DNA from: Escherichia coli | GTDB lineage: Bacteria > Pseudomonadota > Gammaproteobacteria > Enterobacterales > Enterobacteriaceae | Direction: 5' to 3' (one strand) | Assembly: GCF_003334815.1 (NCBI RefSeq) | Contig: NZ_QOWO01000023.1 | Length of the DNA: 64,000 bases | Translations under genes and position numbers: made by a program | Shown here: positions 29,646 through 44,090 of the stretch, piece after piece | Numbering within the stretch: position 1 is the first letter of the stretch | Layout: every line of letters starts with the position of its first letter | The notes under the pieces: generated by a model | Told to the model about the DNA's origin: nothing | Database searches by the model: none | The model's input: only the letters and a program-made list of their open reading frames with translations

Positions 29646-30337
<692 letters not shown>

Positions 30338-30338
<1 letters not shown>

Positions 30339-31189
30339 TGCGGACACAGTGGCCCTCTCCGGCAAAACTTAATCTGTTTTTATACATTACCGGTCAGCGT
30401 GCGGATGGTTACCACACGCTGCAAACGCTGTTTCAGTTTCTTGATTACGGCGACACCATCAGCATTGAGCTTCGTGACGATGGGGATATTCGTCTGTTAA
30501 CGCCCGTTGAAGGCGTGGAACATGAAGATAACCTGATCGTTCGCGCAGCGCGATTGTTGATGAAAACTGCGGCAGACAGCGGGCGTCTTCCGACGGGAAG
30601 CGGTGCGAATATCAGCATTGACAAGCGTTTGCCGATGGGCGGCGGTCTCGGCGGTGGTTCATCCAATGCCGCGACGGTCCTGGTGGCATTAAATCATCTC
30701 TGGCAATGCGGGCTAAGCATGGATGAGCTGGCGGAAATGGGGCTGACGCTGGGCGCAGATGTTCCTGTCTTTGTTCGGGGGCATGCCGCGTTTGCCGAAG
30801 GCGTTGGTGAAATACTAACGCCGGTGGATCCGCCAGAGAAGTGGTATCTGGTGGCGCACCCTGGTGTAAGTATTCCGACTCCGGTGATTTTTAAAGATCC
30901 TGAACTCCCGCGCAATACGCCAAAAAGGTCAATAGAAACGTTGCTAAAATGTGAATTCAGCAATGATTGCGAGGTTATCGCAAGAAAACGTTTTCGCGAG
31001 GTTGATGCGGTGCTTTCCTGGCTGTTAGAATACGCCCCGTCGCGCCTGACTGGGACAGGGGCCTGTGTCTTTGCTGAATTTGATACAGAGTCTGAAGCCC
31101 GCCAGGTGCTAGAGCAAGCCCCGGAATGGCTCAATGGCTTTGTGGCGAAAGGCGCTAATCTTTCCCCATTGCACAGAGCCATGCTTTAA
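30338..31189 (+). CDS. ispE: 4-diphosphocytidyl-2-C-methyl-D-erythritol kinase
   Basis: 283-aa ORF with GHMP-kinase motif ([14 protein letters not shown]); start overlaps lolB stop. Confidence 0.96.
30982..30997. promoter_or_regulatory. candidate PurR operator (pur box) for prs
   Basis: aaGAAAACGTTTTCgc, 12/16 match to ACGCAAACGTTTGCGT with a perfect 12-bp palindrome; lies inside ispE about 350 bp upstream of prs. Confidence 0.4.
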
Positions 31190-31213
31190 GCCGGGCAAGC
31201 TGAGTTTCGGTGA

Positions 31214-32287
<1,074 letters not shown>

Positions 32288-35402: not shown

Positions 35403-36494
35403 ATGGGATTCAAATGCGGTATCGTCGGTTTGCCCAACGTCGGGAAATCTACCCTGTTCAACGCGCTGACCAAAGCCGGTATTGAAGCGGCCAACTTTCC
35501 ATTCTGCACCATTGAGCCGAACACAGGCGTCGTACCAATGCCTGATCCTCGCCTGGATCAACTGGCTGAAATCGTAAAACCGCAGCGTACGCTTCCCACG
35601 ACCATGGAATTTGTCGATATCGCCGGTCTGGTAAAAGGCGCATCGAAAGGCGAAGGTCTGGGTAACCAGTTCCTGACCAACATCCGTGAAACCGAAGCGA
35701 TCGGTCACGTTGTTCGCTGCTTTGAAAATGACAACATCATTCACGTTTCCGGCAAAGTTAACCCGGCTGACGATATTGAAGTTATCAACACCGAACTGGC
35801 GCTGGCAGACCTCGACACCTGCGAACGTGCGATTCATCGCGTACAGAAGAAAGCCAAAGGTGGCGATAAAGACGCGAAAGCTGAGCTGGCGGTCCTGGAA
35901 AAATGCCTGCCCCAGTTGGAAAATGCAGGTATGCTGCGCGCGCTGGATTTAAGCGCTGAAGAGAAAGCGGCTATTCGTTACCTGAGCTTCCTGACGCTGA
36001 AACCAACAATGTACATCGCCAACGTCAACGAAGACGGTTTTGAAAACAACCCATATCTTGACCAGGTGCGTGAAATCGCGGCGAAAGAAGGTTCTGTTGT
36101 GGTTCCGGTTTGTGCTGCTGTTGAAGCAGACATTGCCGAACTGGACGACGAAGAACGTGACGAGTTTATGCAGGAGCTTGGGCTGGAAGAGCCGGGCCTG
36201 AACCGTGTGATCCGTGCCGGTTATAAACTGCTGAACCTGCAAACTTACTTCACCGCTGGGGTGAAAGAAGTGCGTGCATGGACCATTCCGGTTGGAGCAA
36301 CCGCGCCGCAGGCAGCGGGCAAAATCCATACTGATTTTGAAAAAGGCTTTATCCGTGCACAAACCATCTCGTTTGAAGATTTCATCACTTACAAAGGTGA
36401 ACAAGGCGCGAAAGAAGCAGGCAAAATGCGTGCAGAAGGTAAAGATTACATCGTGAAAGATGGCGATGTGATGAACTTCCTTTTCAACGTCTAA
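35403..36494 (+). CDS. ychF: ribosome-binding ATPase YchF (Obg-family GTPase)
   Basis: 363-aa ORF with P-loop GLPNVGKST; recognised YchF. Confidence 0.96.
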
Positions 36495-36553
36495 TTAATT
36501 TATTGTCTCATGAGGTTTCGCTAAATCTCATGAAGAGCGCAAAAGTATATAAA

Positions 36554-36577
36554 ATCCACGCAATTGCGTGGATTTTT
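36554..36577 (+). terminator. rho-independent terminator after ychF
   Basis: hairpin atccacgc-aatt-gcgtggat followed by T5. Confidence 0.7.
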
Positions 36578-43457: not shown

Positions 43458-44090
43458 ATGTCACTGAGCAGAACTCAAATTGTTAACTGGCTCACTCGTT
43501 GTGGCGATATTTTCAGCACCGAGAGCGAGTATCTTACCGGACTGGATCGCGAAATTGGCGATGCTGACCACGGGCTAAATATGAACCGAGGCTTTAGCAA
43601 AGTGGTGGAAAAACTCCCTGCTATCGCAGATAAAGATATCGGTTTCATTCTCAAGAATACCGGTATGACGCTGCTTTCCAGCGTCGGTGGTGCCAGTGGT
43701 CCGCTGTTCGGTACCTTCTTTATCCGCGCCGCACAGGCGACCCAGGCACGGCAAAGCCTGACACTGGAAGAGCTTTATCAGATGTTCCGCGATGGCGCGG
43801 ACGGCGTAATCAGTCGCGGGAAAGCCGAACCTGGCGATAAAACCATGTGTGATGTGTGGGTGCCGGTGGTGGAATCGTTACGTCAGTCCAGCGAGCAAAA
43901 TCTCTCTGTTCCGGTGGCGCTCGAAGCTGCCAGTAGCATCGCCGAATCCGCTGCACAAAGTACGATTACGATGCAAGCCCGCAAAGGCCGCGCCAGTTAT
44001 CTCGGTGAACGCAGTATTGGTCACCAGGATCCCGGCGCGACCTCGGTGATGTTTATGATGCAAATGTTGGCGTTAGCCGCAAAAGAGTAA
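43458..44090 (+). CDS. dhaL: dihydroxyacetone kinase, ADP-binding subunit
   Basis: 210 aa from ATG at 43458 (MSLSRTQIVNWL...). Confidence 0.95.
   Translation: MSLSRTQIVNWLTRCGDIFSTESEYLTGLDREIGDADHGLNMNRGFSKVVEKLPAIADKDIGFILKNTGMTLLSSVGGASGPLFGTFFIRAAQATQARQSLTLEELYQMFRDGADGVISRGKAEPGDKTMCDVWVPVVESLRQSSEQNLSVPVALEAASSIAESAAQSTITMQARKGRASYLGERSIGHQDPGATSVMFMMQMLALAAKE

Follow-up and report, generated by a model that had tools for sequence, protein, structure and literature searches.

The 16-bp sequence AAGAAAACGTTTTCGC at positions 30982 to 30997 of the analyzed stretch, inside ispE of Escherichia coli, is very probably the PurR operator of prs (prsA), situated at −57 to −42 of the internal promoter P1. 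The sequence match, the position relative to the mapped transcription start site (TSS), and a constraint on the DNA that is independent of the encoded protein were computed here; PurR binding and regulation of prsA are taken from the literature, in part as relayed by citing papers. The initial annotation had described a PurR-box-like palindrome with a perfect 12-bp core within ispE, about 350 bp upstream of the prs GTG, and this observation was confirmed in every detail, the RefSeq annotation agreeing with the placement. The window (the whole stretch of 64,000 nucleotides, numbered from its first letter) is chromosomal E. coli DNA: complete genomes were queried with 701 bp around the box, and 5423 of 5426 gave a match of at least 95% identity, annotated as ispE and prs. 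The local gene order is hemA (minus strand), lolB (29715 to 30338), ispE, prs and dauA (from 32412). Separately, the ispE-prs segment (30700 to 31400) gave 13 matches annotated as plasmids among complete E. coli genomes, with up to 3 copies per genome. The genes and the box are as follows:

30338 to 31189, plus strand: ispE coding sequence (RefSeq annotation), host of the operator and promoter
31340 to 32287, plus strand: prs coding sequence with GTG start (at 31340 per RefSeq), the regulated gene
30982 to 30997, no strand assigned: very probable PurR operator (PUR box), top weight-matrix match in the window
30984 to 30995, no strand assigned: palindromic core GAAAACGTTTTC, perfect over 12 bp

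Read directly from the window, the box occupies ispE codons GCA AGA AAA CGT TTT CGC (A215 to R220), with its central CpG at 30989 to 30990 and its center (30989.5) 350 bp upstream of the prs start. Both the 12-bp palindrome (absent from 100 of 100 shuffles) and the core AAACGTTT occur once in the window. Rarity of palindromes as such was rejected as an argument, as the window holds 11 perfect 12-bp palindromes against 15.6 expected. Another of them, ACGCAATTGCGT at 36558, is the center of an ordinary terminator-like hairpin (AAAATCCACGCAATTGCGTGGATTTTT, 36546 to 36576) just after a ychF-like open reading frame ending at 36494.

To score the box, a PurR weight matrix was built from the 28 ChIP-chip motif sites in Table 1 of Cho 2011 (PMC3159470), none of which is at prs, so that the test is independent of the prs box. 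The resemblance to a PurR operator, for which the initial annotation had proposed such a scan, was borne out: on either strand of the 64-kb window the box was the top match (16.3 bits versus 12.2 for the next; P = 1.4 × 10−6 per position, 0.18 expected per window), and with a symmetrized matrix it scored 17.7 bits versus 10.7 (P = 5.7 × 10−7), ranking about 16th relative to the 28 training sites. Its lead over the runner-up was thus 4 to 7 bits across both matrices, and its score fell inside the leave-one-out range of the 28 ChIP-associated sites (7.4 to 25.1 bits). The box is a 16-bp imperfect palindrome with a central CpG, as in the consensus ACGNAAACGTTTGCNT; its core is intact, G3 and C14 are present, and it agrees at all ten base-readout positions with the consensus acGaAAACGTTTtCgt, which is listed for the PurR-DNA structure in PMC4655474. 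Relative to the idealized palindrome it has four mismatches (positions 2, 4, 13, and 16 in this orientation), so a search of the window with the idealized consensus ACGCAAACGTTTGCGT at up to three mismatches missed it and returned only a chance match at 44058; the weight matrix was therefore needed. On score alone, a 4.6-Mb genome should contain about 13 such sites by chance, and position and conservation therefore carry the argument. A strong half-site (GCAA/TTGC) is found in at least one half of 27 of the 28 ChIP-associated motifs, a statistical regularity of known sites and no absolute requirement, but in neither half of the prs box; both of its halves are GAAAAC/GTTTTC, a type characteristic of the weaker half in known operators, that of purF among them. 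Judged by the motif, this predicts a lower PurR affinity for the prs box. A second CG-centered pseudo-palindrome, TAGAAACGTTGCTA (30933 to 30946), lies 50 bp upstream of the box. It was rejected as an auxiliary operator, as its half-sites are one base short for PurR, its score is low, and it is not conserved across species.

The initial annotation had also postulated a promoter embedded in the upstream gene. P1, a sigma-70-type promoter (TTGATG, 18-bp spacer, and TAGAAT with an extended TG), was the sole plus-strand promoter-like match from the ispE start to prs in a promoter scan, and its TSS has been mapped experimentally:

31002 to 31007, plus strand: −35 hexamer TTGATG of prs P1 (ispE codons GTT GAT), from the promoter scan, 100% codon conservation
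31026 to 31031, plus strand: −10 hexamer TAGAAT, extended, with TG at 31023 to 31024, from the promoter scan, conserved
31039, plus strand: prs P1 start (G), with a 301-nt leader (Kim et al. 2012, Table S1)
31039 to 31339, plus strand: prs leader, comprising the ispE 3′ end and the intergenic region

The published TSS lies at 1261399 on the minus strand of MG1655, with a 5′ untranslated region of 301 nt and an upstream 51-mer, CGTTTTCGCGAGGTTGATGCGGTGCTTTCCTGGCTGTTAGAATACGCCCCG, ending ...TAGAATACGCCCCG (Kim et al. 2012, PMC3415461). That coordinate equals window position 31039 and coincides with the P1 promoter element. Relative to it, the −35 hexamer lies at −37 to −32 and the −10 hexamer at −13 to −8; the box is centered at −49.5 (central C at −50) and is separated from the −35 hexamer by 4 bp, i.e., it lies at the promoter of a gene of nucleotide metabolism. 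The first prs sequence, of Hove-Jensen et al. in 1986, reportedly gave a leader of about 302 nt, in agreement with the mapped TSS.

Several side observations concern the leader. Its intergenic part holds a conserved block (31207 to 31262) that includes a hairpin, GGTGACAACGTCACC (31209 to 31223), followed by TTGTTCC; further prs 5′ ends have been mapped to window positions 31223, 31262, and 31322 (Kim et al. 2012), and folding of the leader as a whole was somewhat better than that of shuffles (z = −2.35). The conserved block could be a processing or attenuation element. RNA folding around the box was no better than in shuffles (z = +0.67), and no Rfam matches were found in 30700 to 31500. Among Enterobacterales the ispE-prs spacer ranges from 85 to 266 bp (loci L003 to L011 and others), and in Citrobacter spp. 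an insertion enlarges the prs leader by about 115 bp compared with that of E. coli.

That prs is purine repressible through PurR, as the initial annotation supposed, is supported by the literature, in which prsA is listed as PurR regulated; as far as citing papers relate the original work, this control is already known and has been in the literature and regulon databases since 1993. In those accounts PurR targets prs at an experimentally demonstrated site far upstream, and corepressor-dependent PurR binding and purR-dependent repression were reported (He, Choi and Zalkin 1993, via citing papers); PMC3548332 cites that study among the sources of RegulonDB-curated PurR sites, and prsA appears in PurR regulon lists (including that of PMC2329645). 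The PurR corepressors are hypoxanthine and guanine. No other PurR-like sequence was found upstream of prs, the next-best match between ispE codon 150 and prs scoring −1.9 bits. The box is therefore taken to be the site of 1993 as described in the citing papers, an identification that rests on its being the sole PurR-like sequence there; none of the papers searched for the exact 16-mer quoted the prs site, and the iModulon, LacI-family paper, and Cho 2011 supplements contain nothing on prs. PurR ChIP-chip yielded 35 bound regions, none of them at prs, which is also absent from the main text of that study (Cho 2011, PMC3159470). The same experiment missed the known pyrC and glnB sites, so the absence of a prs peak is not decisive; in vivo occupancy of prs by PurR was weak or undetected under the ChIP-chip conditions.

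To place the prs box among known PurR operators, operator centers were calculated relative to TSSs by combining two data sets (motifs of Cho 2011 and TSSs of Kim et al. 2012):

cvpA-purF operator: centered at −28.5
purT operator: centered at −21.5
purE operator: centered at −37.5
prs operator (very probable): centered at −49.5
pyrD operator: centered at −64.5

The prs operator falls into an "upstream" class, as opposed to the class that overlaps the core promoter (purF, purT, and purE). Its sequence is close to that of the purF operator AAGAAAACGTTTGCGT (14 of 16 positions identical, with a common AAGAAAAC half-site and central CpG). However, the purF operator lies over the core promoter, has one strong TTGC half, and gave a ChIP-chip peak, whereas the prs box stands at −49.5 inside a coding sequence, with two weak-type halves and no listed peak. 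The pyrD operator, like that of prs, is upstream of the −35 hexamer and off the core promoter, but it is intergenic, contains a strong TTGCGT half, and gave a ChIP-chip peak. With purB the prs box shares an intragenic position within a transcribed unit, as read-through from lolB must cross it; the purB site differs in lying downstream of its own promoter and inside the regulated gene, whereas at prs the site is in the gene upstream, ahead of the −35 hexamer of an internal promoter. The start regions of these promoters are also alike: that of P1 (31021 to 31039, CTGTTAGAATACGCCCCG) is nearly identical to its cvpA-purF counterpart (CTGTTAGAATGCGCCCCG) and similar to that of pyrD (CATAATACGCCCCCG; compare ATAATACGCCCCCG), and all three have a GC-rich discriminator and a C-run ahead of the G start. 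On sequence grounds, these common features suggest a shared stringent or nucleotide-sensitive control of initiation.

Conservation was evaluated in a codon alignment of 80 ispE-prs loci, one per species, from Enterobacteriaceae, Erwiniaceae, Pectobacteriaceae, and Yersiniaceae. Synonymous variation was near saturation over most of ispE, with the exception of one block:

30950 to 31048, plus strand: block of suppressed synonymous change in ispE (codon entropy), codons ~205 to 237, covering the operator, promoter, and start site

Normalized codon entropy was 0.14 in the block, as taken over codons 210 to 237, versus about 0.74 upstream and 0.58 downstream of it, and all 15 of the lowest-entropy six-codon windows fell within ispE codons 212 to 238. 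The six box codons had a value of 0.12, compared with a mean of 0.64 for the gene (permutation P = 3 × 10−5), and the rare Arg codon AGA (R216) was kept in all 80 species. The best PurR match between ispE codon 150 and prs was at the box position in every one of the 80 loci. Of the 80 Enterobacterales species, 74 have a box scoring 16.3 bits or more at this orthologous position. The E. coli box sequence itself was found in 48 species; in 21 others position 16 was changed from C to T (...TTTTCGT), which is closer to consensus (18.5 bits), and the remaining changes (T to A at position 10, G to A at position 15) are tolerated by the motif. Within E. coli, the 41-mer around the box was identical in 5419 of 5425 records, and the reduced-genome symbiont "Candidatus Pantoea carbekii" has kept the box at 17.0 bits. 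Three related Enterobacteriaceae (L068, L072, and L079) carry a degraded box, AAGAAATCGGTTTTG[C/T], of 5.9 to 9.1 bits, accompanied by the IspE changes A215V, K217N, and R220C; their promoter hexamers are kept.

Two features mean that PurR affinity alone explains only part of this conservation. Every one of the 80 species has A at box position 2, though the synonymous change of AGA to CGA would add about 2.6 bits, and the synonymous constraint reaches about 17 bp upstream of the box. The upstream constrained stretch contains a conserved inverted repeat, TTGCGA-N5-TCGCAA (30967 to 30983), and the two copies of an 8-bp direct repeat, GCGAGGTT, flank the box at 30969 and 30996, with a spacing of 27 bp. 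A PurR site of 16 bp does not by itself account for the conserved stretches 30965 to 30983 and 30996 to 31003. Either selection keeps the operator at a tuned, sub-maximal strength, or there is an overlapping function (a contact of the polymerase α-CTD or another factor).

Taken further, these features might mean that the conservation chiefly reflects promoter architecture (an A-tract or UP-like α-CTD contact, or the site of another factor) and that the PurR-like palindrome contributes little in vivo, which we consider unlikely. The constraint does extend well past the 16-bp box, from about −89 to +10, and takes in both the inverted repeat and the paired direct repeat; position 2 is invariant though C would suit PurR better, the hexamers are kept in lineages without the box, and ChIP-chip gave no peak at prs. 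However, the match to the UP-element consensus is poor (by inspection, about half of the specified positions), as against a PurR match at every base-readout position; the box varies among species in line with the degeneracy of the PurR motif; and prsA is listed as an experimentally supported PurR target in the literature, as relayed by citing papers.

It is very unlikely that another LacI-family repressor with a similar CG-centered operator, such as RbsR, acts at the box instead of or besides PurR, tying PRPP synthesis to ribose supply. PurR is described in the literature as having arisen from RbsR with a similar motif kept, and purHD and add are reported to be RbsR regulated; we found no literature source naming prs as an RbsR target. 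The substrate of Prs, ribose 5-phosphate, would suit such a link, but the PurR matrix already accounts for the box. The rbs operator half-site, GCGAAAC, is one A shorter than the half-sites of the box (GAAAAC after A/C), so the register would differ. Finally, a chance palindrome arising from the codons of a required IspE peptide (A-R-K-R-F-R), with no regulatory role, is barely credible: 12-bp palindromes are common in the window and a genome will hold matrix matches of this strength by chance, but here codon third positions are frozen in the box and its surroundings, as against near saturation elsewhere in ispE, the rare AGA codon is universal among the 80 species, the peptide is not conserved in IspE outside Enterobacterales, and the box stands exactly upstream of the mapped TSS of a purine-pathway gene.

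With the box read as a PurR operator, regulation would proceed as follows. When hypoxanthine or guanine is abundant, a PurR dimer with bound corepressor would occupy the palindrome and cover the DNA abutting the −35 hexamer, where the α-CTD and sigma region 4 of RNA polymerase would dock. Steric occlusion would then reduce initiation at P1 and, with it, the supply of PRPP synthetase. Bound PurR may additionally act as a roadblock, by analogy with purB, whose PurR operator is described as a transcriptional roadblock (in the title of a paper cited in PMC3548332). Such a role at prs is possible because the box is part of the lolB-ispE transcription unit: in the TSS data lolB has a far stronger promoter (853 reads versus 47 for prs; Kim et al. 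2012, PMC3415461) and no terminator-like site was found between ispE and prs, so PurR may also impede read-through from lolB-ispE into prs. Repression is probably modest, as expected from the lack of a GCAA/TTGC half, the position of the site upstream of the core promoter, and the absence of a ChIP-chip peak at prs.

The host protein offers a view of how the operator arose. In an alignment of 133 IspE representatives, each at most 59% identical to E. coli IspE, residues 218 to 220 are mostly L-Y-P or R-Y-P (P220 in 110 of 133, Y219 in 73), and R-F-x occurs in only 8. Enterobacterales IspE has R-F-R here (CGT TTT CGC). Relative to the family consensus, L218R supplies the central CpG of the box and Y219F supplies an invariant T of the box. 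Since the peptide at the box differs outside Enterobacterales, the protein has no need for this particular sequence. No PurR-like sequence was found at the orthologous position in five other gammaproteobacterial loci (Gallibacterium, Pasteurella multocida, and Mannheimia succiniciproducens of the Pasteurellaceae, one gammaproteobacterium, and Saliniradius of the Alteromonadales), while in-register −35-like (GTT GAA/GCx) and −10-like (TTA GAA TAC or GTA CAA TAT) hexamers were present in all five. From these few outgroups, confined to Pasteurellaceae, Saliniradius, and one further gammaproteobacterium, the intragenic prs promoter appears to be older than the operator, which would have been added in Enterobacterales. 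In agreement with such an addition, the PurR-prsA link has received a low score for conservation across species (PMC2329645).

In the Pasteurellaceae a PurR-like 16-mer occurs 25 bp further upstream, over the conserved ispE N-D-C-E codons (ATGAAAACGATTGCGA in P. multocida, 12.9 bits; ATACAAACGATTGCGA in Gallibacterium and M. succiniciproducens, 9.8 bits), at the following positions of the respective loci:

L086, 2150 to 2165: PurR-like 16-mer
L084, 886 to 901: PurR-like 16-mer
L087, 2153 to 2168: PurR-like 16-mer

This could be an independent operator or a mere by-product of the peptide. For Enterobacterales we tentatively propose, at slightly less than even confidence, that overprinting of the IspE reading frame in their common ancestor gave rise to the operator, beside the older promoter, and that its match to PurR has since been held sub-maximal. 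The sub-maximal match (AGA, never CGA) suggests selection either to keep the purine control of PRPP supply weak and tuned or to preserve a second function that overlaps the operator.

PRPP feeds the synthesis of purines, pyrimidines, histidine, tryptophan, and NAD, and purine control of prs must therefore remain partial; an operator that is weak and lies ahead of the −35 hexamer fits such control. The main worth of the analysis is that a real operator was recognized from sequence alone. What it adds is modest and evolutionary, namely a promoter and an operator inside a coding sequence whose synonymous sites are visibly frozen, the promoter apparently older than the operator and the operator apparently specific to Enterobacterales. 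The operator appears to coincide with replacements in IspE, and together operator and promoter have apparently shaped three residues of their host protein.
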